Positions 2,439-34,279 of a stretch of DNA of 34,761 nt are shown in pieces. The notes under the pieces are model-generated. The model had not been told where the DNA came from. It made no database searches and saw only the letters and a program-made list of their open reading frames with translations. A program made the position numbers and the translations under genes. Source of the DNA: a bacterium (GTDB lineage Bacteria; Auribacterota; Auribacteria; Auribacterales; Auribacteraceae); contig JAGGZS010000023.1 in NCBI GenBank assembly GCA_021161885.1, positions 1 to 34,761 of the forward strand, in the 5' to 3' direction. Each line of letters opens with the position of its first letter. The first letter of the stretch is position 1.

Positions 2439-3344
2439 ATGATAGCGATTACAGGCATATCCGGTTATATAGGTTTTCATCTTGCCCATTATCTTAAACA
2501 AGAAAAACAAAATTTTTTAGGACTCATAAAAAAAAACACCAATCAAGATGACATAAACCTTCTTGAACAAAATAAATTCCAATATAAATTTGTGGATTTC
2601 AACGATGAAGATACAATGGCGCAAGCTCTTAAAGATGTCGACATTATTGTCCATTTAATAGGCAGTATTTATCGTCCGAAACAAATGACTATGGAACAAA
2701 TGCACAAAGATATAACATCTATAATGGTCAGAGCGGCGATAAAAAATAAAGTAAAAAAAATAATCTATATCAGTGCAATAGGCTCAAAAAAGGATGCTGA
2801 AAGTGAATATCATAAAACAAAAGCCCTTGCCGAACAGGAAATCATCAACAGCGGTATCCCTTATGTTGTGCTGCGGCCTTCCTTGATTTTTGGAAAAATG
2901 TACGGCAGGAGAAACAGTAAACTGATAGATAAATTAGCGCAGTCAATATCTAATCTTCCGTTCATTCCTGTAATCGGATCAGGCAAAAACAAACTTCAAC
3001 CCCTTTTCGTTATGGATCTGGCAAGGTGTATTTTCGAATCAATTAACCCGAAAATAACCGGCGTTACCATAGAAATTGGGGGTCCGGAAATATTGCCTTT
3101 TGATGTAATCGCAAAAAAAATAGCCAAATCAATTAATATGGATAAAAAAACTTTAGTGAAAATTCCTAAACCTATTGCGGCTATGCTTGCGTGCGTAATG
3201 GAAAAGATAAGCGCCCAGCCGAAAATCACCAGAGACCAGATTCGCATGACCAAAAACGATAACGTATGCAGCTCAAACTTATCGGGTAAATATTTTTCGT
3301 TTACAAAAAAAAGTATGAACGATATTCTGAAGCATCTTGTTTAA
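2439..3344 (+). CDS. NAD(P)-binding atypical short-chain dehydrogenase/epimerase family protein (NmrA / NDUFA9-like)
   Basis: 301 aa. The N-terminal Rossmann motif is IAITGISGYIGFHL (GxxGxxG) and the catalytic-type motif is YHKTKALAE (YxxxK). The overall layout matches the NAD-dependent epimerase/dehydratase fold. Confidence 0.85.
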   Translation: MIAITGISGYIGFHLAHYLKQEKQNFLGLIKKNTNQDDINLLEQNKFQYKFVDFNDEDTMAQALKDVDIIVHLIGSIYRPKQMTMEQMHKDITSIMVRAAIKNKVKKIIYISAIGSKKDAESEYHKTKALAEQEIINSGIPYVVLRPSLIFGKMYGRRNSKLIDKLAQSISNLPFIPVIGSGKNKLQPLFVMDLARCIFESINPKITGVTIEIGGPEILPFDVIAKKIAKSINMDKKTLVKIPKPIAAMLACVMEKISAQPKITRDQIRMTKNDNVCSSNLSGKYFSFTKKSMNDILKHLV

Positions 3345-3379
3345 TTAAAATTTTATAAAATATTTTTATATTGTAAAAA

Positions 3380-6300
3380 TTAAGCTGCTTCATCGAAATG
3401 AGCGCTTTGGTTAATAGCATCTATAACACTGCTGTTGACCGACCTTGCGTTTGCCTCAATCCGCAGGTATTTAGCAAAATTCTGCGTAACCGACATAATT
3501 CCAAGCGATTCAACACGGTGTATGAAATCGCCTAATTTAGGCGGATTGTCTTTATTGATCGCGCGTAATCTGTCGTATACCTGCTTGATAAAATAAAGAT
3601 CAAGCTGCTCCTTAACTTTTTGTTCCAATAATGTGAATTCTGTTCCAGATACAGCCTGATGTGATATAAAATGCATAAAAACAGATGCGACATCTTGTTT
3701 TTCCACTTCTTTAGCCATAAGTTTTTTGAAAAGCAGGTCGCGAATAACCAAATCTTTTGTCCTGAATTTTTGTTCGACTTTCGCTTTAAGTTCCGTATCA
3801 AGCGAAGGCAGGACTTTGGAATAAAAAATATCCGTTAAACTGCTGTATGTAAAAATTTTTCCTTTAATAGCGTCTGCCTGCCGTATAAAATCGTTAAATA
3901 CAGCCATAATATCGCCTATTTTAGAATTACTATCTTTATCGAGTATAATACGGTCGCTAATATCTATTATTTTTATATCATTAGGAACTTTTTTAGACCC
4001 GAATGACCTTAGAATATCTATCATAAACACAGCTTTGCTATTTTCAAGCATTCCCTGCATAACCAATCCTGAATCGACAATTTGGTAACGCAATCCGTTA
4101 TTCTGTGAATACTCGGCAAGTTTTCCGCCGGGTATATCTATCATCTTAACCCTGCCGGCAATATCTGATTCGGAAAGATCGGGATACTCGGTTTTTATTA
4201 ATCCTATAAGCTCGTCAACCGATTTGACTGTAACGATGAAATCAAACAGATTGTTACTTGAATCACCTTCCCTGCGTTCAGTAGTTTTATCAAGTTCAGT
4301 TTTAAAAATGCCTGTATTTTTATCATTTAATGAAATAGCCACAAAAACAGCCTGACGCCCTTCATTTTTACGGTTTTCCATCTTAAATTTCCTGAATGTT
4401 TCTTTTAGCATAAAATTAGCCGGAGACAATTCGCCTAATATCAATTCCTTCGGGAACAAGAACAAATCGGGTTTAGACATTGTTGCCTTAATAACATTTA
4501 CGGATTTACGCAAAAGGCTTTTTGAGATTTCAAAATCAGCCTTATCAGGAACATAGTCGAAGTCGATATCAAGTTCTAACTCGAAAATTTCCCGGAGCTG
4601 TGAGATGATTTCATTAATCTCAACCGGAGATAGCGGACGGGTTTTCTTTATATTGCCCATTTTAATAATACGGTCTATCAAAGGTTTATATCTTTGGTTC
4701 TCTAACCCGTTTAATGTTAAGGTTTCTATTATGTCAGGCAGTTTATTGCCGAAATAATCTCGTAACCGCGCGGCTTTTATATTTAAGTCCGCATCAGTTA
4801 AAGCAGAATTTTCAGGCAATGATTTCAGGTATTCCCTTGCGCCTATATGGATAAGAACTTCTTCCATACCGCCTCTTAATAATGCATCGAAAAACCCCTG
4901 TCCGAGAAAAATCACTTTTTGCCCGCCAATTACGCGCGCGTCTGTAAAATGGTAACCGTTTAATGTTGTACTGATTCCGTAAGAGCCGTCATTAGAAGGT
5001 ATAACCGCTATCTTAGCTTGTTTAATGTAATCAAGCACATTTTGCAGTAATTCAGCGGTTTTCGGATTGTCTTTGTTCAATGTATTGATACGGGTTTGTA
5101 TAGAATTCATACCTATTTCAAGCATTTTCGCTTTTAATCCGCGAGGCACAAGATTTTCCACTCCGCCCGCTTCATCAATTGCCGTATTTATTATTCTGTC
5201 CGTGAATTCCTGAGCGTCAACCGCTGATTTTACAATTTCCTCTTCAGTTCCGCCTATTTGTTTCTGAACAAATTCGCTTACAAAATCCTGAATTGATAAA
5301 AGCACAGCTTTGCTTACCGGTTTCTTATCAGATAGTTTAAACTTTTCGATCACCTTGCTGTACATGCCATTTACAAATGTATCGAACTTAAGGCTATCCG
5401 CATCAAGGTTATATAATAATTGCGACACAGGTAAATCGGAATAAAGCAAAATATAGCTTCGCAGTTTTTCTATGGTAAATGAACTTACCTCTACAGGTCG
5501 CTCAATGTTTCTGTTTTTATCTATAGATTTATAAGTTGCGTTATCTGCGGGAGTTTCCATATTGTCGTCAGCCTCAAGTTCTGTCTTTGAAGTAACCGGC
5601 GCAATCTGATTGGCTATTGTATGATATTTTGCTTCCAGTTGTTGGGCATCTTCAATATTTCCGGATATCCATTTCCTTAATTCACGGGTTAGTTCAGCTC
5701 GTTTAGCATCGGTTAAATCTTGCCATGATTTATCGATAATACCAGCTATATTTAACGCTTTTTTCTGCCACAGGTGCATTTCGACCACTTCATGCATGGC
5801 TAATGTTTTATCATAGGCTTTTTCGGCGATATAGATGCAATTAAGCTCTATTCCTGCATGGGCGCGTTGTACCCCGGTTAAAACCGAAGCGTTCTTAACG
5901 ATATAAACTCTGACAGGGTTGCCGTCGTAAACTATTTCTCCAGACCGGATAAGATTGCCGGATAATACTGCTTTACGAATAGCCTTGTTCACATTGCTGT
6001 GAGAACCGGCTTTTATGCCCACATCAGCTATATTAATATCGTCTTCGTGTTCTCCCACAACGCCTCTCATGGTATTATCGCTTTTTTCTTCCTGTATATA
6101 TTGAGCATGAAAATGTTTCTGCATAAGATGCACTATCTCCGGGTCGATAAGCGACATAGTTATTGAGCCCGGATAAAATTGTTCAAGAATATTAGCGAAA
6201 TTAGTGAACGTATCGGACAACAATCCTTTACCTCTGAGTTTATCTTTATTTTCCCTTCCAAGTGAAAGGTAATTCAAATGTGTATATTTGAGTTCAGGAT

Positions 6301-27300: not shown

Positions 27301-30300
27301 TTTGAGACGAACCGTAATTATCGGCTACGGCAATAATTTTTCCTATAACTATTGAATCCATAATTTGATTGCGGTCGCTTTTGTTTAATGCGTCTAAAGG
27401 CAGATCGAAATTGTCTGTCAAATAGGTATTTAAAAAAGTTTTATCTGAAGTGGATATTTCAATACCCTCATTAATATTTTTCAATAACCCGTAACTGCGA
27501 TTATCATTTTGCACTTCTGTTTTAAAATCATCCCCGATTTTAAGTTGAGTCTTATTTATAATATATTCTACCGCCTTTTGTTCTAAAGACGATAAAACCG
27601 AAAATCCTGAATCTTCTTGTGTTTTTTCAATAAAAGCGTTAACAAGCTCAATACTCCTTTGTTCGTATCCTAAACTTAACGCAGCACCTTCCGGCGCTGG
27701 TGTGAAGTATCCTAACCCGCTGAAATAAATAGCCGTTCTCATCAAAAGAGATGATCTCGCTTGATTCTTAAATTTAATATTGTCAAAAAGATTTTCAACG
27801 AAAGAAAAAATTTCATTTAAATGATGTTCATTGTGGAAAGTAACATCGCTGCGCCTACTCTTAGGGTTAGCCATATAGTCAATGACAAAATTTCTTACTA
27901 ATTCAAGATTTGGGTCAGCGCTGTATCTTTTAAGAACTTTATCGATGTTTTGTGCGTTTCGCTTACTCAATGAAGATTCTATTGTTTCGGTTTTGTTTTG
28001 GATAACCTCGCCAACAGGACTTGTTAAAGAAGATTTTAATTGGTTTACAAGAGAAACATTTGTTTTTATGATATTCATCAAATTAGTGTCTGCTAAAACT
28101 TTTTTAAACACATTTTTTAATAATTCCCGTTTCTCTTTGCCGGTTCGGTTATCGGAATATTCGCTTATCAATCGGTTTAACAATTTTTTTATTTCAGAAT
28201 CGCTTAACCGCTCCCCTTTACTGAGCAGCTCACCTGCCATAGGGATATCGGTATCCGCCAAATTTATTTTTATATTTAAAAATTGTTTTAATTTATCCGC
28301 AGCAGATGAGGTTTGGGTTACAAGGGATGCAGCAGCGGGAAGCGGTTGCCCGATTACAGTATCAGCGCTAAAAAGAACCTGCCTAACCGTAGATATAAAA
28401 TTATTATTTCCTTCAGCGGATAGAATCGTCTCATAAATATTATTTTTGAATTGAGTGCCGGGCTGTTGAGTTTGTCTTAATACAAAACTAAACGGTTTTT
28501 CGTATCCATCGATATGCACAGTTATTAAATGAGAATACTGGTGTTCATCTTTTCCGAGAAACTCCACTTCAATATTGGATATTGCCTCTGGAGTTATGTC
28601 TATTAAGCCGTGGGCAAGAAAAAGCATTTCCTGAACGATATGGGTGTTTTTCAAAACATTTTCAACACTTTTAAAAATTTCAGGACCACGGTTTGCGCCC
28701 ATTACAGGATGATCAAACTCTTTGCTGTTTGCGTCATAGGCTGTCGACGGGGATATTTTCCAATTCTCTTTATCTATAGAATCAGCGAGTTTAGGGATTA
28801 TTTCAGATATTCTTGCATCCATTTTCTTAAATGCTGATTTCGCAAAATTTACTATCAAGTCATCTTTAGCGTTAAGTATCCACCATACGATTTCTTTACG
28901 AACAGCAAGGAACTCATCGGCATTAGTAAACGGTATTCTTATTAGATCGATAATCAAATCCGTTACTTCATTTTGTTCCTGATAAGATAATTTTTTCTCT
29001 TTATATTTTGATAACGATTCAGACGCTACGGCTATTTTAGAGAATACATTTATGGTTTCGGTAGATTTTTTTTCTTTAACGATTTCAGCTGCTGTAATGC
29101 CCGCTTTTTTATCGAATTGATGTTCAAGCCGTTTGGCCTTTTTTATATCCGATGCTATATGGTCTCTTAAACCGTTGCGAAGTTCAGCTCTTTTAGCTGC
29201 GGTTAAAGTATGCCAGCTGACAGGTTCAAGTCCGGCGAGTTTCATTGCTTCATTCTGCCACATAATAAGTTCCAATGCTTCATGCAGTGCGAGTTCTTCA
29301 GTAAAGGCGTTGCCCGCGATATAAACCGAATTTCGTTCAAGCCCTGCGTGTCCGCGCTGATTGCCGACGAGGATATTTTCACCTTCAATCACATAAACTT
29401 TAATTCGTCGTCCATTTACAACTACATCGTCCATTCGTTTTAGTTTACCGTCGGAATATGCTTTTCTTATCTGGTCGTTGACTTCCTTGTGGGGACCTGC
29501 TTTAAGCCTAATATCCGCAAAATTTATATCTTTTGCCTTTGAAGAGGGTTCGCTGCTGTCATCAATCGCTTTTCGTATTACCGTTCCGTTTACCTCAATC
29601 ATACCGTTAGAAAAAACTCTTGTAGTTGTTCCGTCGTTATGAATTATTCTCAACACGTTGCCTTCGCCGTCTTCAAACCCCCATAATTTGACATTAATAA
29701 ATCCAATAGCGATATCATTATCGGTTTTAAAATTTACTTCGATTTTATCGGTTTCAATTTGTGATATAACTTGAAAAAAAGTGTTTGACTGGGGAACTCT
29801 ATCTGCGTCAGCTATTTGTCTAATCTGTTCAACACCTGATGGTTTAGGTGGCAGTTCGGAAAAATCTGATGATTCCGGCGGGAAAGCATCCAGCACAGGT
29901 CTTTGAAGTTCCTGCATTTTTTTTCTTGTTTGCTCAATTTGTTTGGCGAGGTCTCCTGTTTCTTTAACATGAAGATCAATCTTTAGGGTGTTGCCTCTTC
30001 CTAACTCCCTAATAATGTCAAGTTTATAGGCTTGCTGGTCTACGATAAAAGAAGTTGAAAAATCTCTGGGCAACTTTTGGAAAAAATTAAACCAAAACTG
30101 AGCGGGGACTCCGTTTTCAATATCAATTGAAGTTATTCCTGCTTGTTCAAAATAGTTCCTGATATAATCCGGCAGCGATTCAGCATCTTGTGTGATATTC
30201 CAAACATATCTTGAATCTTTTGTTTTTTCACTTAAATTAGCGATGACTTTAAGTATAGGGCTAACCGCAAATTCGTTTCCGTCAATATTGGTTATTAAAT

Positions 30301-32482
30301 TAAGGCTTGCTAATCTATTAATTATAACCGCCTGATTAATTAACGATAAATCCGAAACGGAGATACCTATTTCTTTAAGGGACTGTTTAACTTTTTGTTC
30401 GTGCGGTGTAAGCTGATCTGACGGTTTTTTAAGTTTATCTATTAAACTTTGTATTGAATCTGGTGAAATAATCTGTCCATTGAGAAGAACAGGAATTATG
30501 GATGCCAAAATTTTGTCTGATTTTTCCCGTATCTCTTCCATTTTCATGCGGTACAGTTCGCCGTCGACTATATCCATATTTTGTCCGTTAATCGTAGCGG
30601 TAAATATGGGATTGAGATTTTCTAATTCCTGAGTTGAAAATTCTACAAACGCAAACGGCTGGTTACCGATAACAAGAGCAACATGCAGCCCGCCTGTGGG
30701 AGAGGGGGTAATATTAATTCTTGTTAATTCAGGGAAAGACCCTTGCGACCAACCCTGCAGGAAAAAATTGTTGACGATATCGGAGAAAGAACGCAAAGCA
30801 TCTTGCGAGGTAAGTATATCTTTATCAATCCCCGCGAATCGATAGACGCCGTAAGCCACCATAAGCGCTTTTAATTCCGCCTTGAAAGATTGAGCTCCGG
30901 CAGCATCTAACAACGGCGGGCTGCCGAGTTTTGAAGCTACCGCAAGAGCGCTCGCCTGTTGGAGAACATTTGTAAGGCGTTCTTCAAAAGGAGATTTTTC
31001 GTTTAACATCATAGATATATAGGCTTTTTTATCGTCGCTTTCGTGGATCAAAGGGGCTACCACATAATAGGAAATACCTTCTTCTTTAAGGAGTTTCATC
31101 ATACCGTCCGTATGAAACCCGCCGGTTATAAGCACTCCTTTTTTAATATTTGCCAAATCCATTTCAGTTAACATATTGTCCACAAGATACCAATCTCGTT
31201 TTTTTGATAATGTGTAAAAATCTTCAAGAAGAGGTAAACTGTTGTCAACCATAGATATATTAGAGTCTATAAAATACATAAATTGAAAGCGGGCCGCAAA
31301 TTTTTCGATAAAATCAATAATATTTTTGGTCTTAAATTTTTCTTTATTCTCAACATAATACTCAAGGTCTCTTGTCGATAATTTAAGGTCAAAAAAGTTT
31401 TCAAGGATATTTACGACTTTATAATATTGGTCAAGCTGTTTTTGTTCATCTTTTATATAGAGTTTATTTTTTATTTCCCGCAAAATGTCTTCCGACTCAT
31501 AAAAAAGTTCTTCCATATTGATTTTTTCGTATAATCGCAGATAAGGCAGGTAATCGTTAAAATTTGGATAGCCGTTTAAATCTATGTTTACGGAATTAGC
31601 TTTTTTAACTATTGCTTCGTGAAAATCAAGAGGTTTGACATATTTTAATTTATATCCGAGATTAAGTTTAAGAAGCTCACTTGCTTCTTCCTTAGGCAGG
31701 GACTTTACAAGTTTTTCGATAATCTCATTGCGTTCAGCGCTTAATTTGTCAAAATCTATTTTTTTTTCAAGTTCGTGTGACTGCATCATCAAACTGTAAT
31801 TTTCATAAAGCCAAAGGTCTATTTCATATTTTTTCACAAACTTATTCAAATAGGCGCTGAATCTATAAAAATTAATATTGCCGGTTTCATAATCCTGATA
31901 TATTTTGTCAATATCTAATAAATCTCCCTGAAAAAGATGAGATTTTATTTTATTTAACGTTTTTTTGAGGCTCACGCAGTACTTTTTGGCATTTTTGCTT
32001 ACTTTCAAAGAATTAACTAATGCCTGATAATTTTTTAGGTAAAGCTGTTTATCTTCAACCCCTACTAAATTCATCTCGGAATTTTGGTTATTCAAAACAA
32101 AACATTCTGAACCTGAGAGAACTCCTCTTTTCATAAAATATTTAGTTACATCGTACAGCACTTCTTTATCGGGAAACGAGCTAATGTCGGGCGACTCGAT
32201 TTTTCCTTCCGCCCCTTCCAGCCCAATTATTTTAAATCCCTTTGCCGACAATGAATTTAAAATTTTATAGGTGTTGCTTTGGGCGTCAAAGTTGCAATGC
32301 GCGTTTTTAATATGGACTATAACGCGTTCGTCATCGCCTTGAAATTTTTCAAGAATTTTGCCGTAAAACCTTGAAATTTTAAGGTCGTTATCTGCGTAAG
32401 CAATATTACTAAAGAGCATTGCCTCCATAAGTATCAATGCGCAAAGGCGCATAAACAACTTACTTTTCGGTTTGAATAACAT
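3380..32482 (-). CDS. Giant multidomain protein, 9,700 aa (signal peptide, GT2 synthase with membrane helices, kinase-like domains, HEAT repeats, zincin-like HE modules)
   Basis: The frame is uninterrupted for 29,103 nt. ATG is at 32480-32482 with AAGGAG at 32492-32497 (9-nt spacer), and the stop is TAA 3380-3382. Every other frame over this span is fragmented (the largest antisense ORF is 184 aa). Ordered catalytic motif sets occur along the whole length (see sub-features). Confidence 0.92.
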   Translation of the reverse strand: MLFKPKSKLFMRLCALILMEAMLFSNIAYADNDLKISRFYGKILEKFQGDDERVIVHIKNAHCNFDAQSNTYKILNSLSAKGFKIIGLEGAEGKIESPDISSFPDKEVLYDVTKYFMKRGVLSGSECFVLNNQNSEMNLVGVEDKQLYLKNYQALVNSLKVSKNAKKYCVSLKKTLNKIKSHLFQGDLLDIDKIYQDYETGNINFYRFSAYLNKFVKKYEIDLWLYENYSLMMQSHELEKKIDFDKLSAERNEIIEKLVKSLPKEEASELLKLNLGYKLKYVKPLDFHEAIVKKANSVNIDLNGYPNFNDYLPYLRLYEKINMEELFYESEDILREIKNKLYIKDEQKQLDQYYKVVNILENFFDLKLSTRDLEYYVENKEKFKTKNIIDFIEKFAARFQFMYFIDSNISMVDNSLPLLEDFYTLSKKRDWYLVDNMLTEMDLANIKKGVLITGGFHTDGMMKLLKEEGISYYVVAPLIHESDDKKAYISMMLNEKSPFEERLTNVLQQASALAVASKLGSPPLLDAAGAQSFKAELKALMVAYGVYRFAGIDKDILTSQDALRSFSDIVNNFFLQGWSQGSFPELTRINITPSPTGGLHVALVIGNQPFAFVEFSTQELENLNPIFTATINGQNMDIVDGELYRMKMEEIREKSDKILASIIPVLLNGQIISPDSIQSLIDKLKKPSDQLTPHEQKVKQSLKEIGISVSDLSLINQAVIINRLASLNLITNIDGNEFAVSPILKVIANLSEKTKDSRYVWNITQDAESLPDYIRNYFEQAGITSIDIENGVPAQFWFNFFQKLPRDFSTSFIVDQQAYKLDIIRELGRGNTLKIDLHVKETGDLAKQIEQTRKKMQELQRPVLDAFPPESSDFSELPPKPSGVEQIRQIADADRVPQSNTFFQVISQIETDKIEVNFKTDNDIAIGFINVKLWGFEDGEGNVLRIIHNDGTTTRVFSNGMIEVNGTVIRKAIDDSSEPSSKAKDINFADIRLKAGPHKEVNDQIRKAYSDGKLKRMDDVVVNGRRIKVYVIEGENILVGNQRGHAGLERNSVYIAGNAFTEELALHEALELIMWQNEAMKLAGLEPVSWHTLTAAKRAELRNGLRDHIASDIKKAKRLEHQFDKKAGITAAEIVKEKKSTETINVFSKIAVASESLSKYKEKKLSYQEQNEVTDLIIDLIRIPFTNADEFLAVRKEIVWWILNAKDDLIVNFAKSAFKKMDARISEIIPKLADSIDKENWKISPSTAYDANSKEFDHPVMGANRGPEIFKSVENVLKNTHIVQEMLFLAHGLIDITPEAISNIEVEFLGKDEHQYSHLITVHIDGYEKPFSFVLRQTQQPGTQFKNNIYETILSAEGNNNFISTVRQVLFSADTVIGQPLPAAASLVTQTSSAADKLKQFLNIKINLADTDIPMAGELLSKGERLSDSEIKKLLNRLISEYSDNRTGKEKRELLKNVFKKVLADTNLMNIIKTNVSLVNQLKSSLTSPVGEVIQNKTETIESSLSKRNAQNIDKVLKRYSADPNLELVRNFVIDYMANPKSRRSDVTFHNEHHLNEIFSFVENLFDNIKFKNQARSSLLMRTAIYFSGLGYFTPAPEGAALSLGYEQRSIELVNAFIEKTQEDSGFSVLSSLEQKAVEYIINKTQLKIGDDFKTEVQNDNRSYGLLKNINEGIEISTSDKTFLNTYLTDNFDLPLDALNKSDRNQIMDSIVIGKIIAVADNYGSSQTYPYLAGLIQPELSADQSPSACETIFAQIANIPGINGLIMGQRLVYLLDDDVIGLNKIIPESEKQSRNKNLDILRDIGNHLQALKNTQLSQTDKLNHLEALKVFVDEGIQKGVFNESMKTILYKEIMDIAGKNATQPAVVQGVFFEGINKGAASGAFKFAGESVIKGIPLVGSNAVNGQSGFVSIRPDETAAHYRVRVRKVLPAVVSALYRMSANIDNKWSFKNIEPQGIVLKLDESGGVTAVINADNAGNQRADINKSFDLLLLLQQVVENNVIAPMPIDVRKSIGDENTLILILNTIINEADGLNFIKQSLSELDSLLIDSDTGTKKTDVQTDGLLFKINDYKNLRNQIKDFASEHFTNLPVIQSKFEAKADNLVNSIMNSIIQKQSINQDIFGQIKQLADMLNSTKSGELRNIVISKLVSEKFTRSISDIDIHLLNKLYSSIFDNLNGQPADELYLRLENLVKNEWGLAELPVLREIRSKKLAGTAVNIQIDSFLEQIKNNKGVISIGSINIKVPDELIGYILLLSDQLTNLKTEGNIADYNKKFDFIISAVLASSGLSTQQRKTIINALPVPFERQRRLDTLLGVLLDNADPAGLYWIDADKQLFETAAAAGINLSFDKRHDVAAKNYVNVTSALPIYTLASDINRNFQVINIYPELNNPYFSLEYKSDVGVNMFSVFNAKNSTVRASLETAGYHGYFKTDTIKNGQVSWLIDEMFPVTIDRFSIASEAEQPSRLNVHSEDVSSLTYQARMDSIINEIRNPLLEKHGYKDVLEMLGEYEQYYVYMSAEDRISAQIPIRLKNYLTDFMNRFTVERAKDNARLRMLRDYIAEAKGNKEKRAKRIEFNKKVDNGEIKIKPNPFTDMPVNEVLAEGAIKGIAVMVTDPNTNLDISDSLSPFNDPNSNFYKARKRAEQENIPLVLIHHYPPQAKAQSVMPVIRSKVSSLDNFKNFEKLTSADLMAINGLLKTLTDIEFSQSNEFNAVKKELLWWVTNSKNNKLRKTAWSNFARLYSKLDNLLEQKNDAKIRGNWHISHADIYNTISKDMDVSAEKPATEILSEIENILKNTNLVKQMLFAIYGLTDVPASSIKNIHIDYLQKGALKYAHLVSVIIEGQPEPYRFVLNQHKKGDMGLLIKNLEPFVLGEQAGQEAISPVFAGIVNEFDGNTQADYNFFIESYLQGQPLVRLISQESTEDMVHMLGAETEQEYSERLSNIISLASGVLYRQAELSMLEYIPVVNPSGIMIRMNENNKYEAGLANVTAIEKTTDFFDIVLYIDMVLKSGVLNSLNPEMKNIYIETYLPETIFDGIIQSDPVTGIKVLEQTRNSLQRFIQSRKEIHSYQIVKKIGGYQRTLEELIVFEKKLTDYIDSYKTNNQQENTTEKPAYPVETAEKLAKLYADINLSREQSQGIVSTEIKFAEVHNFKDIAAQFLQLKNQGVTIPKNIQPLFSEAYFNKLEQSSNQAGLAVLTDILKSVVNDPAHPAAVPYLAQMEKNDISRLIDNLTSFVSGDFTNITFDISDTQNILQQLPAQSFVGERLNNALLAMNNKKPYTVINIEYDFRHGLGNADKINLIIERAASQQGLTDKDIILIKTVSNLDDGSFNISLNADTLANLRSNIPAIAYGTTFENLAFTFKKTISREGISQSNLSFSEQLQQVGGLGSEFIRNEYALYQMAGLSSVPVQSLTKELRVVSLLNREIGAEFKIRDYFKQTEINESNYKHFFSIIDLLYRVGIVSNDNYLKIFQAKKSNSFQQIKPIVFSSMDESKKPAETDTQALLRHISEFNIKRARLDKVVQIARVLIENPSLSSKYPNLKAQLGDVIDFAVKFRTTKDSSDYQWSPSELARERILINNIDKYEAVIGRTLKSDTEGSFKTVVSRLPAESDVNSAFQGTAVFMRNALVGYLPLKGQVPSRIARNNQRLAIDAILRGLNMVQRQSDNETLKDILNSSNPLENIVKHMNSLPVQQENELPVLDIVDETTRISMGDKLAKSIDALVENKQELDPEAIKNLKNLTDKIQSLGFKKAAEHIENFMANALEIGRLMRSGDANDRLAGNEMFMEFRTKINADFFFHIGIVYNGEYIFDFYNDNVEEHKVTINGKQETVLILRGKRIKDPFYNIAPAQYILSDKTYPFPGYPQGAHIIYIENNEIEINIVKRMFKLLNINKEENPVADVLLNQIKDIPVEKLAALLVQISKAHEMKLFVDDALKSPLLYNVYSAEASAVFAPLMAIVAKLELTETLTEDEKNSLFDDLDSIFNLELIDHMYAKTNFFKYLMHKSPKMMYQLPLLLLVAELVSPEVADSVVDKLKSKIKDSTTSDFEEIQNEVFGIINEFSVGILKVPFKNITENFRQKYIDFVTEKFPNKTERGKAIASALKSLMNKLGQDERYAQFADMRLWNKLNDTLSQRNVKQIVKKMDFEQIIRSILRDRTIYSENDLNDLISQSEDITAEQRRTIKNLNLIANGLPLSEAELEYVENNKDNPWNTLLSVMNGWITDQNKKFTPATLKTINGELGDEAVAWAVGLYTEKVSNQLDGPLKSFNIDTDIKIIEYALNGQIYVTPIRFVNSFMKIFSNLPDNQARSLALNTILLKSNKAYSDFEQFVMDITGLYPQTLLRNNPQAKQFFKRKNNQQYINQTEIDRISMLALRLSQSFTGKQLLDKSTASQIVDFMFSLLRTPVSGKAQTAFLEEIVAETSQQMDIPLTLTSFNRLFKDSTGYSLSQIVKSDVKLYNNKELALQFKLSSQMPAGFDSFAEAVDVLVSSTYMNSTIRNERDIKDKTDSLNIISDLLNKHSELALDMLSYLDEAVKNSYGKNINSFINKFDSEAVGTTFASLFPLDLIESYAQLTSQTIDIVMAEQLARAQKAVNGDQKFLKSPQTVRSEKSLQRKSVEDINKIIREHILSGKAVRVPLDSLNNNVSEDIINPLFEGSPEETSVNLQRLFTDLPAAAQEELKKQLSDPMSKERLRKSLVLGFDVLRSSKIIDKISDFSLTVLLDWEGEFYNAQALSHVGAENKSFYLNLSTLMYIAEMEPEDQAYSKRILQAVYEHEYRDYLRGGHAEDIGKVEPVYFQGKPISFKQVEKFWAELQNRPKEIRELHKVDGQIKEYFKIQPKGLPEFVISSQLIDEMGVLSAGKVLALLSRAAALNKTNLKKIFGKEQQVVIENLADFTDKYGEKYNIDLRRFSSKIPVSSLEEFRPLPLDEIQYADQLKDLEFASDFFIVTPVFNLLSRDDPDLMENILKKAYEGKYLDKLVIVDDASTDGTQDLLKRFNRKYNIKLLNAKLQDIALRLAKADITDDERQGLQALESITRNELASWENYINPETGEQVYDFNMILRDKNGHRTGAIRDAVLGLYSLAEHRKIKKLPEKLFIMDGDSYIEGTDISGALKDAANMLGHVEKDGNRIIANILPLSTSFGTLPKGTSLLKKINFLYLAWLRSLNTFFTMSVPGGGGGYLVPYLVRALQKHSGIFETDDAELSGLLRQNKNSKFKFFGRRDFRVITDMPETLKGKWIQARRWSGGMFQLMRKGAKMPKDMRIPAIITTIMYTALVPVFAMFGFMTIEMIPIFHLVDMLLMISGALVLGYAIFALPIFIFGKHASRYEKVQTVLMAPVMAVNFLFSSLIASFFEYFITVGDFLLIRPYNALKPVLARPITMPVFPQLWAEFKNKYVEPSRLLVAGVIRQLKSNPDLLTQRTFFGFLGAFLSTMASQYMIDTAEPVSTIINLVFTMAGFSIGAITALWNILPEIMAQTAQVQDETDNNRNNQSLARGKIRANVDNEISKLIENGDAIRIDLKSIALDYSNIDELVYTLFDKDLSTAQLAVKLQANLKISNTARKNFETKLNNPQYRVKLQKALKTALLILRSSEYKDYLKDFFLTLLVDEQGVFFRGDALAHAGLSRKTIYLNTSTLEYVDNMSGNDRVFGMKVLKTVLEHEFRDWARGVIAKKSQEAVIWNNLLRKLFKNPKNLWFRAWVDLYKTSPAVVNKTENPEMFSAHQKDIGVIDPVEFGEDIIDFAKVDAFWKHLQKSRDAKINYNNETVSLKTLLSDIKNNTDIPIEKRNARIRTLTERYVRESADKISSAIFINYDLYKAMTSRTDAIGRVKDDAALQYENLKDELTQLNETLDVDLTDIIEDIKTLIWLYSEFNDTIGTGHDAKDKKQADGMLHSLDFNLLKKEGIIKQIQQLHKKGINASIFLDANELQTEDQRFYLLNNLNLILSELQDIPDEIVNSLPNWGNEIALSAKPIFKSRIKGINKVRKGWRRHGEIFVSDKTPRKTFIHEYIGHHALLTLMEQAVLEPDKINDLEKIMPADDIMRILFACCNTYSIKDSLRTIRFSVNVNMNFYPSKKLKNAINEYNKQTPENYQIFDLGETKDGYRIEKIPFQFLQWAIDNNKQLFWALIVGGIYFSTPDDIRINLIKNGKTEDIYLTNILEIIAFATSNDDTPKYSSNPIFSYNRAAVRKILAANYLKGWLWTEGKGWQKVQQKTGTAYSGEKTVVLSDIQTDKEHKIEVQVKASLSGLLKKEPQWTAQAPLIDPETLNSITTSWDNYSYTPKMANSLKSYISTLSGWIKQDGKQISEQISMMTILSDTYMSDLADMLGNIIEQINHSPEGIKTVKISPTAASGTVILHLASINDLQNIGVDSLANKRNGEIHIYLPVEYITSNTTVFAQMLRSQIDESAYELPHMASLALESVFNRTGNRQPGLASDRIKTDFISRINNARTLEDFQKLEKYFQTIIRNETSMIKQVDKATNLNLMHKKVAEKLINNVTFYAKYSSAIVKENIIRLSGKAGDYSIENVVRENNKSIVFRGQDKNGNTVLIKMIKLPLFDGFSRTQLENLFKDWQREMSLTKTMYPEQTAITGDNLLEENPFLSIKLDNPLTMEQKTKNISSPETLLSFAQSVLEQLIGMYDKKIVLNDITPFDMFIGSDNTLVLTGLSQALKIGQSSPFSEPSLTAKNIFYSSPEKIDAANAQNKVQDLLRKISSLKTADDIIAQLKNIKIIFESVFTESELKYSTSYNTLINVVMPQIADELKPFDVSVPTQINNKLRDTINRQVVQTMYEILSEQNDVFILGIIFAELLTGHHPVSAKLQLLSTDQLRNFDETKFTADLIQSGDFDFDFMESMLGTEITKILKQSLAVNKTERYKTAKEFLTALNDALSNKDLKLSVSRRKELPDVRLAALNQADNLSFGNICGTDKHRHDAFNQMIKKLFDKKPQPLPFKEERKQAKSLLSELNYAELSVNPLLNKMFEEKGINSESDFNKFIDNISTALDNTQIYSLPADNILFWVGNRYAAAHYGHYQDRNNIYMSGKFANLLTDKEKSVVVLHEAFHLAGLSHEEAEAIQTFILDQKKSYDTVLNFMHIAADLEVTLKTNVPAVINGKYSYTPVTDFLAVFAPALKQALRSGTSFNQKAFVSLMSNRGFSENFTASVFKELNEMLKLNAIGYSIENRALENIVDKNSVTQSDIRKNINRLAGFNLIDRSVAVDTLTAVKDKALPLLITALNKENPNIREGVLYVIGQTGNADAMADVFAMINDRSEKVALQAQKTVFKLADKSVIPFMRKIISQQSDDTSVVLAIKVLDKLKADLNVDADNLLIHPNPDVRKAAGDFLKSRGIDRSNQLKLSDNIWNSLNLMATAENSLEFNDLIDILEQYGDDLIAYLRLGLNNQEAGIVDASAILLGRKGDKSAVRHLLHLVYKNKGFQSTIAVETLKKKIFNEELLRLYIAGDNIEKEQAALAMGRNKYSDAMNTLGNSIVDKNSPYSFYVKQAALKAMIDIAGDNYIGVLADILRKLDRRDLTADDRAVLIEIPSMMLEKGDKKSAPILRHLLYADRISIKRETVKALGELGNRKDIPTLKLYAGLYPELTPDVEAAVKKLDGPLAKILSGIGFFMGGIPAPEYHCDDFQLHKNNYTGLNEILANISYAKVPILITENGTPYEFTMKIDDDFADSEHEAPVTNEMIETWIKDILTGEEQILKNLQGSEIDFVMLTKSFRIAENHLDDNFIGINKAIFQIKNPVVIELLFKMFLRHELLHEAGLSPKDESELKVWESVQFRESLQQLLSGLEKAKMPLENFIEQIKPAFSNKAFLIDVLTFIDNGTLPAKMIGILDDMDITLPYDELISKLAKSMGLEIGGLLRSRDESEHLKLILFQLDQFRHEYAFDYAPNAEEIINLFESLVDTPYSRNTDFITARRELSWWIDNAKDKRIAEKAKSFNDKLYTMLDNMLDNNAGIEQTTAGWRVIKKFMPKVADTKQKQRMQWTVTYSEKYNGTFPDFYNEDGLVNNGPKITEEITKSLKETNLLRRTLFVLFDRKDITEDMIESIHIDYIGRGYFKYAHKITVFVKGEHQPMQFILKSKRRPDSKFDIENINLILAYGEKRGKGKTDLVPLVASRAFKPGEIAAEPVFDVYTESVLPGEPMLVENRDGKIISGQLMMKPNEKASEYMKRLSDILKVGVGALYQVHKNFNFIKLYYDRNPSNIMVSGDKDAGYNAAIVDLGYVSSTDKYSDLLMFMARYFNNVVSGIVKNNYPQLSSTLDTDIFTVKMLFEGILASDKVDGLDFLSSAYADLTDIIDQNKGKDKILRIGTWHKTELENIADSLKQFLVNKNVYINLQSGFDETDISQKQTDKYEIKDETIDQLPAAAWIADDLWNAFSAINNGKPPVVIQAHGINAANRKDLTDQLALIDDDQMVVIIMSDFNSDYVDHRVIADKAGYVRKNIKQIISGRVDYDGEFEYLLAFRKYFKEDMIHFNNMRIGRVYTDQLQGNKLMINTFERFVNILEHYYPGKITAEILHPSSKHLMAKYFDAAYESDFNNQMTGTIKDGTNQQKGEITLEGISAEELKSSQKIQKKMQTKQPQKPASQIEQANKELTQENITKLPVSLWIAPNLWNTLTEINNGNTALVIQTHSSFMTNKVMVEAQLEDVPEAQVVTLITSEKQKDKIDFRVLVDTAGNIKKNLYNVLRGNLSQDYGLFLIDFTIYPELKYTHLNYLSLGRENKDKLRGKGLLSDTFTNFANILEQFYPGSITMSLIDPEIVHLMQKHFHAQYIQEEKSDNTMRGVVGEHEDDINIADVGIKAGSHSNVNKAIRKAVLSGNLIRSGEIVYDGNPVRVYIVKNASVLTGVQRAHAGIELNCIYIAEKAYDKTLAMHEVVEMHLWQKKALNIAGIIDKSWQDLTDAKRAELTRELRKWISGNIEDAQQLEAKYHTIANQIAPVTSKTELEADDNMETPADNATYKSIDKNRNIERPVEVSSFTIEKLRSYILLYSDLPVSQLLYNLDADSLKFDTFVNGMYSKVIEKFKLSDKKPVSKAVLLSIQDFVSEFVQKQIGGTEEEIVKSAVDAQEFTDRIINTAIDEAGGVENLVPRGLKAKMLEIGMNSIQTRINTLNKDNPKTAELLQNVLDYIKQAKIAVIPSNDGSYGISTTLNGYHFTDARVIGGQKVIFLGQGFFDALLRGGMEEVLIHIGAREYLKSLPENSALTDADLNIKAARLRDYFGNKLPDIIETLTLNGLENQRYKPLIDRIIKMGNIKKTRPLSPVEINEIISQLREIFELELDIDFDYVPDKADFEISKSLLRKSVNVIKATMSKPDLFLFPKELILGELSPANFMLKETFRKFKMENRKNEGRQAVFVAISLNDKNTGIFKTELDKTTERREGDSSNNLFDFIVTVKSVDELIGLIKTEYPDLSESDIAGRVKMIDIPGGKLAEYSQNNGLRYQIVDSGLVMQGMLENSKAVFMIDILRSFGSKKVPNDIKIIDISDRIILDKDSNSKIGDIMAVFNDFIRQADAIKGKIFTYSSLTDIFYSKVLPSLDTELKAKVEQKFRTKDLVIRDLLFKKLMAKEVEKQDVASVFMHFISHQAVSGTEFTLLEQKVKEQLDLYFIKQVYDRLRAINKDNPPKLGDFIHRVESLGIMSVTQNFAKYLRIEANARSVNSSVIDAINQSAHFDEAA
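5615..6040 (-). other. Giant protein aa 8815-8956: module X copy 2
   Basis: DINIADVGIKAG...RAHAGIELNCIYIAEKAY...LAMHEVVEMHLWQ, with H8897 at 5792-5794. The first D and the HE histidine are 82 residues apart, exactly as in copy 1. Confidence 0.6.
6086..6622 (-). other. Giant protein aa 8621-8799: module V copy 2 (179 aa, exactly 240 aa after copy 1)
   Basis: ENITKLPVSLWIAPNLWNTLTEINNGNTALVIQTHS...KLRGKGLLSDTFTNFANILEQFYPGSITMSLIDPEIVHLMQKHF, with E8621 at 6620-6622. RGKGL plus the following helix resembles GNAT motif A (R/QxxGxG/A). Confidence 0.5.
6806..7342 (-). other. Giant protein aa 8381-8559: module V copy 1 (179 aa; possible GNAT-like C-terminal half)
   Basis: ETIDQLPAAAWIADDLWNAFSAINNGKPPVVIQAHG...QLQGNKLMINTFERFVNILEHYYPGKITAEILHPSSKHLMAKYF, with E8381 at 7340-7342. 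Confidence 0.5.
7520..8707 (-). other. Giant protein aa 7926-8321: module Y copy 3 (WW motif + protein-kinase-like fold with catalytic residues intact)
   Basis: ARRELSWWIDNAKDK (W7943 at 8654-8656); IESIHIDYIGRGYFKYAHKITVFVKGEHQPMQFILKS (Gly-rich loop and Lys); VYTESVLPGEPM (hinge-like); LYYDRNPSNIMV (D8220 at 7823-7825, N8225); AAIVDLGY (D8242, DFG-like). The pattern resembles the ABC1/RIO/APH-type kinase families. Confidence 0.7.
9098..9280 (-). other. Giant protein aa ~7735-7795: zincin-like module with canonical HExxH (HELLH)
   Basis: NFIGINKAIFQIKNPVVIELLFKMFLRHELLHEAGLSPKDESEL, with H7775 at 9158-9160. It shares the pattern HExxHxAGLSxx[DE]xE with the HEAFH module. Confidence 0.5.
9655..10780 (-). 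other. Giant protein aa ~7235-7610: HEAT (PBS-lyase type) repeat array
   Basis: Helical-pair repeats recur about every 30 aa, for example LLITALNKENPNIREGVLYVIGQTGNADAM, LIHPNPDVRKAAGDFLKSRG, QEAGIVDASAILLGRKGDKSAVRHLL and RISIKRETVKALGELGNRKDIPTL (P7240 at 10763-10765; E7583 at 9734-9736). Confidence 0.7.
11213..11425 (-). other. Giant protein aa ~7020-7090: zincin-like module with canonical HExxH (HEAFH)
   Basis: AAAHYGHYQDRNNIYMSGKFANLLTDKEKSVVVLHEAFHLAGLSHEEAEAIQ, with H7069 at 11276-11278. Confidence 0.5.
11783..12886 (-). other. Giant protein aa 6533-6900: Hanks-type Ser/Thr protein kinase-like domain, probably a pseudokinase, with a large insert in the C-lobe
   Basis: The kinase subdomains are recognisable:
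- VLIKMIK (strand-3 Lys, K6561)
- IVLNDITPFDMFI in place of HRDxKxxN (D6658 at 12509-12511, terminal N replaced by D)
- VLTGLSQ in place of DFG (Asp lost)
- YSSPE (APE-like)
- DVFILGIIFAELLTGHHPV (subdomain IX)
- NKTERYKTAKEFLTAL (subdomain XI Arg)
The glycine-rich loop lacks glycines. Confidence 0.75.
14393..14530 (-). other. Giant protein aa ~5985-6030: HE module variant (HEYIGHH)
   Basis: GWRRHGEIFVSDKTPRKTFIHEYIGHHALLTL, with H6016 at 14435-14437. It has the same order as the other HE modules: a basic/His segment, a hydrophobic strand, then HE. Confidence 0.3.
15200..15940 (-). other. Giant protein aa 5515-5761: module Z copy 2, immediately downstream of the membrane cluster
   Basis: ISKLIENGDAIRIDLKSI...LRSSEYKDYLKDFFLTLLVDEQGVFFRGDALAHAGLSRKTIYLNTSTL...TVLEHEFRDWARG...HQKDIGVIDPVEF...FWKHLQ, with H5669 at 15476-15478. 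It matches Z1 apart from an insertion of about 50 aa after the HE motif. Confidence 0.6.
16028..16669 (-). other. Giant protein aa 5272-5485: cluster of about five transmembrane helices following the GT2 domain
   Basis: The hydrophobic stretches are IPAIITTIMYTALVPVFAMFGFM, IPIFHLVDMLLMISGALVLGYAIFALPIFIF, VQTVLMAPVMAVNFLFSSLIASFFEYFITV, TFFGFLGAFLSTMASQYMI and VSTIINLVFTMAGFSIGAITALWNIL. The helix count is by eye. Confidence 0.7.
16703..17632 (-). other. Giant protein aa 4951-5260: family-2 glycosyltransferase catalytic domain of the processive (cellulose/chitin/hyaluronan/NodC-like) type
   Basis: FFIVTPVFN opens the domain. The motifs are VIVDDASTDGT (D4990/D4991, nt 17498-17515), FIMDGDSY (D5108-x-D5110, nt 17153-17161), FETDDAE (T5207-D5208-D5209, TED-like, about nt 16856-16867) and QARRW (Q5248-W5252, nt 16727-16741). 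Confidence 0.85.
18020..18607 (-). other. Giant protein aa 4626-4821: module Z copy 1 (SHVG...FYLN...EHEYRD module) immediately upstream of the GT2 domain
   Basis: IIREHILSGKAVRVPLDSL...LRSSKIIDKISDFSLTVLLDWEGEFYNAQALSHVGAENKSFYLNLSTL...AVYEHEYRDYLRGGHAEDIGKVEPVYF...FWAELQ, with H4781 at 18140-18142. It is collinear with aa 5515-5761. Confidence 0.6.
23351..24373 (-). other. Giant protein aa 2704-3044: module Y copy 2 (WW motif + protein-kinase-like fold, catalytic residues lost)
   Basis: AVKKELLWWVTNSK (W2719 at 24326-24328) ... IKNIHIDYLQKGALKYAHLVSVIIEGQPEPYRFVLNQ ... EYIPVVNPSGIMI ... GLANVTAIE. The positions matching the D, N and DLG residues of Y3 are V, G and ANV. Confidence 0.6.
28463..28936 (-). 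other. Giant protein aa 1183-1340: module Y copy 1 (WW motif + kinase N-lobe-like part only)
   Basis: FLAVRKEIVWWILNAKDD (W1200 at 28883-28885) ... ISNIEVEFLGKDEHQYSHLITVHIDGYEKPFSFVLRQ aligns with Y2 and Y3 up to the strand-3 region. No catalytic-loop equivalent follows. Confidence 0.5.
29105..29530 (-). other. Giant protein aa 985-1126: module X copy 1 (AHAG...IYIA...HExxE zincin-like module)
   Basis: DINFADIRLKAG...RGHAGLERNSVYIAGNAF...LALHEALELIMWQ, with H1067 at 29282-29284. By hand count it is about 45% identical, ungapped over 139 aa, to aa 8815-8956. Confidence 0.6.
31058..32335 (-). other. Giant protein aa ~50-475: possible ChaN/TraB/Tiki (erythromycin-esterase superfamily)-like domain
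   Basis: VIVHIKNAHCNFDAQ...IIGLEGAEG (H57, H62, E89) resembles the N-terminal GExH..H..Q...lE motif block. VLITGGFHTDGMMKLLKEEG (H457, codon 31112-31114) resembles the C-terminal GxxH..G...L motif. This is motif-level resemblance only. Confidence 0.3.
32393..32482 (-). other. Giant protein aa 1-30: Sec-type signal peptide or N-terminal anchor
   Basis: MLFKPKSKLFMRLCALILMEAMLFSNIAYA|DND has a basic n-region (K4, K6, K8, R12), a hydrophobic core and an AxA-type site (AYA). Confidence 0.55.
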
Positions 32483-32491
32483 AATAAGAGA

Positions 32492-32497
32492 CTCCTT
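32492..32497 (-). promoter_or_regulatory. Shine-Dalgarno sequence of the giant gene
   Basis: The plus-strand CTCCTT is AAGGAG on the coding strand, 9 nt upstream of the ATG. Confidence 0.6.
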
Positions 32498-32653: not shown

Positions 32654-32745
32654 TGCTTAAAAATTATTGAATATTACCCCAATTATATTGTACCATTTTT
32701 TAATCATTAATTCAATTATTTACATATATAGCAAAGTTCAATTAG

Positions 32746-34270: not shown

Positions 34271-34279
34271 GAGAAAAAA

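Follow-up and report, generated by a model that had tools for sequence, protein, structure and literature searches.

A 9,700-residue protein encoded by an Auribacterota-like bacterium belongs to a very large family of long proteins that share a putative TIKI-type N-terminal domain

What is encoded by a reading frame that stays open for 9,700 codons in a bacterial genome, to which proteins is its product related, and where might such a chain act? These questions are raised by contig JAGGZS010000023.1 of NCBI GenBank assembly GCA_021161885.1, analyzed here over its entire length, positions 1 to 34,761 (hereafter the window), which carries at 3380..32482 on the minus strand an ATG-initiated open reading frame (ORF) of 9,700 codons with a single terminal stop. 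The identity and family placement of its product can be read directly from the data. The frame, from an Auribacterota-like bacterium, is a real and vertically conserved gene, and the giant protein that it encodes belongs to a very large family of long proteins in Omnitrophota, Elusimicrobiota, Auribacterota, Chlamydiota and others, whose common feature is a signal-peptide-like N-terminus directly followed by a domain of ~490 residues (the N-domain), the remaining chain being lineage-specific. Localization and function are inferred: the best explanation, to which we assign a probability of about one half, is that the giant protein is exported and, tethered to the inner membrane, belongs to the envelope or cell surface; it would consist largely of a scaffold of degenerate enzyme-derived modules with a few live centers.

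A homology search with residues 1-4900 retrieved 95 proteins, all 2,700-8,000 aa long and, where a source is named, from Omnitrophota, Elusimicrobiota, Chlamydiota, FCPU426 and Verrucomicrobia; in all 95 the match is confined to the first ~520 residues of the query and lies at the relative's own N-terminus. The tile comprising residues 1-300 is matched by 231 of the 232 relatives collected. When a 21-sequence alignment of the N-domain (profile A1), which includes the window protein, was used for an HMMER search of 1.84 billion cluster representatives, it matched 10,258 proteins at E ≤ 1e-3, of which 7,209 reach E ≤ 1e-30; in every one of the best 150 of the 10,258 matches the domain starts at residue 10-192, the proteins being up to 7,055 aa long and many of them obviously truncated. 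The same profile places the domain at residues 32-521 of the giant protein (hmmsearch E 1e-181, the query itself being within the profile), and profile scans found no model for it in Pfam or NCBIfam. Behind the N-domain, precomputed Pfam annotation of the relatives' bodies is very diverse, with domains such as phosphoglucomutase/phosphomannomutase (PGM/PMM), PFK, transaldolase, enolase, glutamate dehydrogenase, isocitrate lyase and CMP kinase, as well as SecA-DEAD, epimerases, protein kinases and HEAT. The embedded PGM/PMM enzymes look catalytically intact, in that those of P0002, P0006, P0007, P0010, P0012 and other members keep the phosphoserine loop 'T[AG]SH[NIL]P...NG', including members whose N-terminus is signal-like and which have no further TM (transmembrane) helix.

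That the frame is a single real gene had been claimed by an earlier note, made from the DNA letters and their translations, and this is borne out by the open frame, a uniform coding signal and orthologues. Base composition predicts about one stop per 14 codons, so that the probability of 9,700 open codons is ~10^-317, and the window contains no ambiguous bases (N). Within the span just one further ORF reaches 150 aa; located at 27882..28436 on the plus strand, it encodes 184 aa, the very ceiling that the note had given for the other frames. The note's Shine-Dalgarno sequence (Table 1) was likewise confirmed, the nearest in-frame upstream stop lying 21 codons before the ATG. Codon position 1 has a purine fraction of 0.60-0.68 along the ORF, GC content at this position (GC1) is above GC2 and GC3 in every one of the nineteen 500-codon blocks, coding periodicity is uniform across these blocks, and the remaining two frames contain 30-68 stops in each of them. 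Moreover, the cosine of codon usage is 0.99 between thirds of the ORF and 0.958 relative to flanking housekeeping genes. Scans of the window found no tandem repeats, no Rfam or tRNA matches, and no promoter or terminator above chance level.

When genomes were scanned with residues 1-520, three loci (L002-L004) were identified at 58-62% identity, two of them labeled Candidatus Auribacterota, including Ca. Auribacter fodinae SURF_26, and the third 'Bacterium R3-B46'; two of the three sit on long contigs (647 kb and 958 kb), and orthologous genes lie on CAXXKF010000011.1 (near 533-547 kb) and JAHDNF010000002.1 (near 342-356 kb). In each locus the orthologous frame is open for 2,215-2,519 codons, up to the end of the DNA examined, and the first ~970-1,000 residues are collinear with the giant protein at 47-52% identity, with lpxL-like, ACT-domain and def genes located upstream and divergently transcribed in the window and in all three loci. 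With this level of N-domain identity and the same synteny, the closest relatives belong to Candidatus Auribacterota, and not to the Omnitrophota-like source that the earlier note had envisaged. Past residue ~1,000 the orthologues hold the same types of module with number and order changed, which points to module duplication and shuffling rather than assembly error. A metagenomic relative of 5,394 aa (P0001, probably cut at a contig end) is matched by residues 1-1362 at 43% identity, and aligns with the glycosyltransferase region described below at 36-48% identity.

The N-domain is assigned with moderate confidence to the TIKI superfamily because of Foldseek results, Pfam matches of its core and a constellation of residues resembling that of RRSP. 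Within A1, H62, E89, R429, G454, G455 and H457 are invariant and D60 is near-invariant; positions 60-62 read D-A-H in 176/214 relatives, and those displayed have a Cys directly after the motif His (DAHC). The giant protein has N60, its four closest relatives D. AlphaFold2 run on A1 (mean predicted local distance difference test score, pLDDT, 82.4) yields an α/β core with five strands (54-60, 85-88, 138-142, 448-454 and 471-477), into which an all-helical region is inserted. A Foldseek search of the PDB with this model gave no significant match, the best apart from helical bundles being EreC (6xcq, 6xcs; E 0.04-0.075) and Bcr135 (3b55), with E values of 0.04-0.6 for these best globular matches; both are reference structures of the TIKI superfamily. 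PDB profile searches with the N-domain, whether the insert was kept or removed, were negative. Among the 21 insert-free cores compared with Pfam, six match PF04187 (Haem-binding uptake, Tiki superfamily, ChaN; best E 2e-4), three DUF5694 and one TraB_PrgY_gumN. The catalytic constellation described for the TIKI domain of RRSP (E3900-x-H3902, E3930, R4001, H4030; PMC6254334) has spacings almost identical to those of D/N60-x-H62, E89, R429 and H457.

Like other members of the superfamily (Tiki, TraB/PrgY/GumN, ChaN, erythromycin esterases and RRSP), the N-domain thus combines a predicted parallel β-sheet core with an acidic-x-His motif, a Glu ~27 residues further on and an Arg ~28 residues before a second His at the end of a GGxH strand. 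Unlike them, it has a core that is split by a ~300-aa all-helical insert, is fused to the N-terminus of proteins of several thousand residues, matches Pfam only below threshold and, in the giant protein, carries Asn rather than Asp or Glu at the first acidic position.

Behind the N-domain, the chain consists of duplicated and shuffled modules around one synthase-like unit of glycosyltransferase family 2 (GT2). The motifs VDDAS (4989-4993), DGD (5108-5110), TDD (5207-5209) and QARRW (5248-5252) follow each other in order, and directly after QARRW come the sole hydrophobic helices of the chain apart from its N-terminus. In its native form the domain scores 21.3 bits against PF00535 (cut-off 23.3), a value that rises to 26.3 bits upon excision of a 54-aa insert (residues 5014-5067); this, together with the intact motifs, upholds the earlier recognition of a GT2 with C-terminal membrane helices, and the GT2 copy of P0001, which naturally lacks the insert, scores 27.5 bits. 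A further, partial match is to TIGR03937 PgaC_IcaA (E 1e-4). The order of the D, DxD, TED-like and QxxRW motifs, the hydrophobic helices immediately after the latter and the PgaC_IcaA match are features of processive membrane GT2 synthases (PgaC/IcaA, BcsA, hyaluronan and chitin synthases), from which the unit differs by the lack of N-terminal transmembrane (TM) helices, by its location 4,950 residues into a chain with a putative signal peptide, by the insert within the GT-A fold, by the D modules on both sides and by its triplication in P0001. Residues ~2900-5394 of the latter hold three tandem D-GT2-TM units, whereas the giant protein has a single D-GT2-TM-D arrangement, so that the synthase-like unit is itself a duplicating cassette. 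An AlphaFold2 model of residues 4600-5770, based on a four-row alignment, reached a pLDDT of 47.6 and was discarded together with its Foldseek output. Two metagenome scans, one with the GT2 and one with the C-terminal domain, found no relatives.

Internal paralogues, defined by tile-against-tile BLAST, are as strongly diverged as had been proposed, the ~45% estimated for the best pair comparing with 44.6% for residues 985-1123 versus 8815-8953. The three atypical-kinase-like modules K1-K3 are mutually 25-34% identical, and K2 and K3 match no Pfam kinase family; an orthologous K module in L003 matches Pfam ABC1 (PF03109) at 23.7 bits versus a gathering cut-off (GA) of 22.9, and 13 of the 15 top matches of a PDB profile search with the K modules are protein kinases, the alignments falling on the catalytic loop and DFG (E 0.2-1.1). 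The earlier reading of three kinase-like modules therefore stands as far as paralogy and, via the orthologue, the ABC1 relationship are concerned, but Lys, the D..N loop and VDLG are all kept in K3 only and are lost from K1 and K2. In K1, the equivalents of the N- and C-lobe are parted by a ~500-aa insertion (residues 1358-1855, window 26918-28411) that has no detectable relatives and no Pfam match.

The Hanks-type domain scores 32.5 bits against Pkinase (GA 31.7; 521-aa tile) and also matches phrog_2361 (Ser/Thr kinase, E 2.8e-13) and PADLOC PD-T4-6 (E 2.4e-8). Its kinase-like character, noted earlier, is thereby supported; LIK and SPE are kept, but LTG stands at the DFG position and the catalytic loop, 'LNDITPFD', has Asp in place of Asn, which makes the domain a probable pseudokinase. 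The HEAT repeats were recovered by Pfam as predicted, and PDB sequence searches with both halves of the protein returned only designed alphaRep/HEAT proteins. Strict HExxH motifs occur twice in the chain, versus ~0.1 expected from residue frequencies, in addition to one HExxxH at 6016; the HExxH modules that the note had listed are thus reduced to those at 7069 and 7775, the other 'HExx[HE]' modules being without key residues. Neither homology between Z and D modules nor a zincin or metalloprotease identity for them can be claimed (hhalign probability 1.8%), the shared 'H.G....IY...HE' being a motif only. A weaker copy of the tandem ~200-aa module is found at residues 3255-3385, and a GNAT-like identity considered for the modules at 8369-8809 was dropped because Pfam gave no support. 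About 36% of the chain carries no domain or module assignment.

Altogether, Pfam detects three families in the giant protein (GT2, Pkinase and HEAT), with an ABC1-like relationship added via the orthologue. To judge from their motifs, most enzyme-derived modules have lost catalytic residues, full sets being retained only in GT2 and K3, so that the term 'multi-enzyme' used in the earlier note was an overstatement for a chain in which key catalytic residues are missing from K1, K2, the 'HExx[HE]' modules and the Hanks-like domain. The same note was correct in setting the protein apart from adhesin-repeat or repeats-in-toxin (RTX) giants, there being no Ig, cadherin, RTX or cysteine protease (CPD) domains in Pfam and no tandem repeats, and from nonribosomal peptide and polyketide synthases, no condensation, adenylation, thiolation or ketosynthase match having been found with Pfam and NCBIfam.

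Table 1. Features of the giant gene, its product and the adjoining DNA. Residues refer to the giant protein and positions to the window.
Feature	Residues	Window positions	Strand	Basis or remarks
Shine-Dalgarno sequence AAGGAG		32492..32497	-	Sequence read directly; spacer to ATG 9 nt
Signal-peptide-like N-terminus	1-30	32393..32482	-	KKKR n-region, h-region of ~15 aa, AYA before D; pattern recurs across family
N-domain, family-defining, putative TIKI superfamily (ChaN/TraB/erythromycin-esterase-like)	36-500	30983..32377	-	A1 invariants, AlphaFold2, Foldseek, Pfam core scan
All-helical insert within N-domain (~300 aa)	~145-444	31151-32050	-	AlphaFold2 model
Region common only to Auribacterota-type relatives	501-984	29531..30982	-	
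Z1 module, 'AHAG..N.IYIA..HE[AV][LV]E'	985-1123	29114..29530	-	Z2 paralogue
K1 atypical-kinase-like module	1156-2062	26297..29017	-	Catalytic Asp, Asn and DFG-Asp lost
K2 atypical-kinase-like module	2655-3110	23153..24520	-	Catalytic residues lost
D1 module, 'SHVG..K.[FL]Y[LM]N...EHE[YF]RD'	4613-4821	18020..18646	-	Ahead of GT2
GT2 glycosyltransferase domain	4950-5270	16673..17635	-	Pfam, NCBIfam, motifs
Hydrophobic helix cluster, ~4-5 helices	5275-5480	16043..16660	-	Kyte-Doolittle scan only
D2 module	5497-5761	15200..15994	-	D1 paralogue, after membrane helices
Hanks-type protein-kinase-like domain	6533-6900	11783..12886	-	Pkinase, PHROG, PADLOC
Short module with strict HExxH (HEAFH at 7069)	7025-7085	11228..11410	-	Motif only
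HEAT repeats	7218-7623	9614..10831	-	Pfam, E 2e-17
Short module with strict HExxH (HELLH at 7775)	7730-7790	9113..9295	-	Motif only
K3 atypical-kinase-like module	7900-8355	7418..8785	-	FILK, DRNPSNIMV and VDLG kept
Two tandem ~200-aa modules	8369-8568 and 8609-8809	6056..7378	-	36.6% mutual identity
Z2 module	8815-8953	5624..6040	-	44.6% identical to Z1, best internal pair
C-terminal domain	9123-9700	3383..5116	-	Resembles the C-terminal ends of P0004, P0005 and P0013, family members of ~3,060 aa
IS3-type element		943-2303	+	HTH_Tnp_1 ORF 943-1278; second HTH ORF 1272-1553; rve integrase ORF 1590-2303

Where such a chain might reside is suggested by three of its properties, from which its export is inferred: the signal-like N-terminus, the TIKI-type domain and the depletion of cysteine. 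Residues 1-30 have the make-up of a putative signal peptide. Bacterial TIKI-type domains (ChaN, TraB/PrgY) are normally extracytoplasmic. The 9,700 residues include only 10 cysteines (0.10%), four of them before residue 170, compared with 1.47% in seven flanking ORFs (binomial P ~4e-48); orthologues contain 0.12-0.41% cysteine, their flanks 1.5-2.4%, and across the family the median value is 0.34%. Export of the chain would begin via the Sec pathway and leave it outside the cytoplasm, with the helix cluster at 5275-5480 tethering it to the inner membrane; there it might act as an envelope or surface scaffold with a few live catalytic centers, like the 'coat'-type giants proposed for Omnitrophota, while the substrate of the N-terminal TIKI-type hydrolase could be either the protein itself or an envelope or target molecule. 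The idea of the earlier note that a polysaccharide machinery had been fused into one polypeptide conflicts with all three properties.

Within the putative signal peptide, a polar position of the h-region is conserved, with E in the Auribacterota group and Q in many Omnitrophota members. Generic Sec signals do not usually show this, and it may reflect specific recognition. A prepilin-type leader, considered on account of this E/Q, was rejected in view of the missing G-F cleavage motif.

Several observations weigh against an exported scaffold. The TIKI assignment itself depends on sub-threshold profile matches and a weak Foldseek match, and the giant protein's own insert-free core has no Pfam match. 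Controls for cysteine content at two further loci (L005 and L006) are consistent but noisy, making the depletion only suggestive. A hydrophobicity scan, albeit crude, finds no hydrophobic segment between residues 28 and 5275, so that an exported N-terminus would put the GT2 and kinase-like modules on the trans side of the membrane, where neither UDP-sugars nor ATP are expected; the predicted topology conflicts with a nucleotide-sugar-dependent GT2. Family members that have intact PGM/PMM phosphoserine loops and no TM helix also fit cytoplasmic chemistry better. The literature on Omnitrophota giants meets the same paradox of topology and cofactors (10.1101/2023.11.21.568195; 10.64898/2026.06.07.730766).

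A possible, though unlikely, alternative is an assembly line on the cytoplasmic face, in which the N-terminal helix would be an anchor only, the GT2 and its helices would polymerize and export a surface polysaccharide, and the other modules would regulate or scaffold. The intact D/DxD/TED/QxxRW series, with helices right after QxxRW as in PgaC/BcsA-type synthases, speaks for this arrangement, but no TM helices precede the GT2, unlike in known synthases; similarly, kinase-like modules and HEAT repeats are typical for cytoplasmic proteins, yet catalytic degeneracy affects most modules of this chain. The arrangement is also in keeping with the intact PGM/PMM loops and the further sugar-phosphate enzymes of family members, as it is with the neighbors of the giant gene, which include a NAD-epimerase-like gene and lpxL, that is, envelope sugar and lipid genes. 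At the N-terminus, by contrast, the positive n-region, short h-region and AxA site predict an N-in/C-out orientation, the adjoining TIKI-type domain is of a normally extracytoplasmic kind, and cysteine is extremely depleted in both halves of the chain. On the other hand, 46% of Omnitrophota giants have been read as TM-anchored cytoplasmic proteins by Nielsen & Lui (10.64898/2026.06.07.730766).

It is more improbable that the giant protein is a delivered multi-effector, an exported chain whose helices would insert into the membrane of a partner or prey cell and whose enzymes would act in the cytoplasm of the latter, with the TIKI-type or HExxH modules cutting the chain. Such a scheme would resolve the topology paradox, since ATP and UDP-sugars exist in the other cell's cytoplasm, and TIKI-fold effector domains are found in MARTX and PMT toxins (PMC6254334); a QxxRW-type GT2 followed by helices, however, resembles a polymer synthase and not a protein-glycosylating toxin. 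A low cysteine content is something that the chain has in common with many secreted toxins, but Pfam detects in it no RTX repeats, CPD autoprotease, type I secretion system (T1SS) signal or known translocation domain. Although most of the family falls in phyla that include host-dependent or predatory organisms, Auribacterota were inferred to live freely as fermenters (PMC9324843); and although one relative (P0004) adjoins secretin/pilus-type genes, there are no secretion genes within the window. Cleavage of giant proteins by N-terminal peptidases has been considered possible by West-Roberts et al. (10.1101/2023.11.21.568195), but there is no evidence of cleavage sites in this chain.

A broader proposal, which we regard as doubtful, is that the N-domain marks a hitherto unrecognized superfamily of >10,000 clusters of exported poly-enzyme giants in Omnitrophota, Elusimicrobiota, Auribacterota, Chlamydiota and relatives, the domain being a processing or export-coupled hydrolase and the cysteine-free chains being delivered outside, possibly into other cells, with enzymes of cytoplasmic type, such as PGM/PMM, kinases and GT2, working in that foreign compartment. 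If it were true that the N-domain is a processing or export hydrolase, the handling of giant proteins would become directly testable.

Finally, an artefact (chimeric assembly, neighboring genes merged through sequencing errors, or a degenerating pseudogene open by chance) is exceedingly improbable, for although the sequence is a short-read metagenome-assembled contig of only 34.8 kb, whose ends carry an insertion sequence (IS) element on one side and, on the other, a def gene that is truncated, and the exact 9,700-aa protein is missing from a collection of 15 billion proteins, this explanation is opposed by the ~10^-317 chance of so long an open frame, by homogeneous codon usage and periodicity, by the absence of nucleotide repeats that could mislead an assembler, and by long continuous ORFs in independent assemblies (P0001 with its 5,394 aa and the three loci) that share the collinear N-terminal ~1,000 aa and the same synteny.

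At one end of the window, the 940 nt preceding the IS3-type element contain no ORF in any frame. At the other, the peptide deformylase (def) gene (window 34280-34576, plus strand) encodes 98 aa, compared with 172 aa for its orthologues in L002 and L003, and no continuation is present in any frame up to the contig end; either a frameshift or truncation has affected the gene, or this end of the contig is of poor quality. An independent assembly (L001; ENA ERZ23499350, a contig of 1,861 nt) matches window 32708-34568 and encodes an identical lpxL-like protein; behind it the gene order of the window is kept, with ACT-domain and then partial def-type genes. It starts 38 nt ahead of lpxL, the assembly having broken in an intergenic region of ~30% GC beside the giant gene, and this break illustrates how giant genes are lost from short-read assemblies.

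Two further loci place family members in other surroundings. In Ca. Tantalella remota (L005; JAVCCB010000050.1, 501-19183), two giants with an N-domain, of 3,104 aa and 3,060 aa, are arranged in tandem, preceded by a 5,047-aa gene and followed by a 1,521-aa PGM/PMM protein without an N-domain, after which come sugar ABC permeases and a GH113 mannanase. In a Logan contig (L006; DRR321573, 1-9840), P0004 (3,073 aa) adjoins two secretins, a PilM-like gene and pilus-associated genes of the Amuc_1100/Amuc_1102 type, a setting that echoes the reported link of giant genes with systems resembling type II secretion and type IV pili.

Giant ORFs with few annotatable domains have been reported for Omnitrophota, among which a surface 'coat' was proposed for Velamenicoccus archaeovorus (PMC10066038). 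The 'Archaeovorins' combine glycosyltransferases, peptidases, glycolytic-type enzymes, HEAT_2 and many TM helices (10.1101/2023.11.21.568195); a catalogue of 916 proteins includes a class of 'multi-enzyme metabolic cluster', and 39% of Omnitrophota giants are predicted to combine a signal peptide with TM helices (10.64898/2026.06.07.730766). Elusimicrobiota and other phyla related to the Planctomycetota-Verrucomicrobiota-Chlamydiota group are enriched in proteins of >5,000 aa (PMC11573180), and the one giant protein reported near Auribacterota is different, being of CASH/adhesin type (PMC12057145). Giant multi-enzyme proteins with signal peptides and TM helices had therefore been described (10.1101/2023.11.21.568195; 10.64898/2026.06.07.730766; PMC10066038), contrary to the impression of the earlier note that the combination matched no described family; for Auribacterota, the multi-enzyme giant type had not been noted in this literature, and the cited works make no mention of a TIKI-like N-domain or of cysteine depletion.

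The giant genes of Omnitrophota and neighboring phyla are an acknowledged gap in knowledge, and the present locus extends the phenomenon to Auribacterota in the form of a syntenic, conserved gene. With 9.7 kaa and a single TM cluster, its product is a small and comparatively tractable example; the well-folding TIKI-like N-domain is expressible and assayable and can be used as a profile to catalogue the family, and the chain-wide depletion of cysteine bears on the debate about localization.

Among known systems, MARTX and large clostridial toxins offer an analogy only. The giant protein has neither their RTX or CROP repeats, nor an autoprocessing cysteine-protease domain or T1SS signal, and its glycosyltransferase is of QxxRW type; like them, it is a very long, putatively secreted chain of unrelated enzyme domains that would need host cofactors, with a TIKI-fold domain (compare RRSP), a glycosyltransferase and a hydrophobic region comparable to one for delivery.

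Compared with Archaeovorin-type giants, which include the 39,678-aa protein of V. archaeovorus (10.1101/2023.11.21.568195; PMC10066038), the giant protein is shorter (9,700 aa versus >30,000 aa), comes from an Auribacterota-like genome and has a single TM cluster. At 9,700 aa it falls marginally below the published, and arbitrary, length thresholds for giant proteins, which are ≥10,000 aa in Nielsen & Lui and >30,000 aa or >90 kb in West-Roberts. Pfam finds in it no SecA-DEAD, C39/S8 peptidase, NUDIX or methyltransferase domain; in particular, the divergent SecA DEAD domain that West-Roberts report in most giants gives no PF07517 match at E ≤ 1, while PF07517 is present in family members P0027, P0028 and P0030. 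In addition, those papers describe N-terminal regions as 'generally lacking identifiable domains', whereas here the N-domain is defined and assigned. Shared with Archaeovorins are the huge ORF with few annotatable domains, a content of glycosyltransferase, kinase-type, peptidase-like and HEAT_2 elements together with a putative signal peptide and/or TM helices, poor conservation beyond close relatives, and the same problem of topology versus cofactors.

A further comparison is with the multi-enzyme long proteins of class 1 (Nielsen & Lui 2026, 10.64898/2026.06.07.730766). Despite its different phylum, its three detectable Pfam families and the degeneracy of most of its modules, the giant protein resembles them in that apparently diverse enzyme-type domains tile one polypeptide with a putative signal-peptide-plus-TM architecture, that PGM/PMM, glycosyltransferase and HEAT content recurs in its family, and that its repeats are old and diverged, with no tandems at the nucleotide level.

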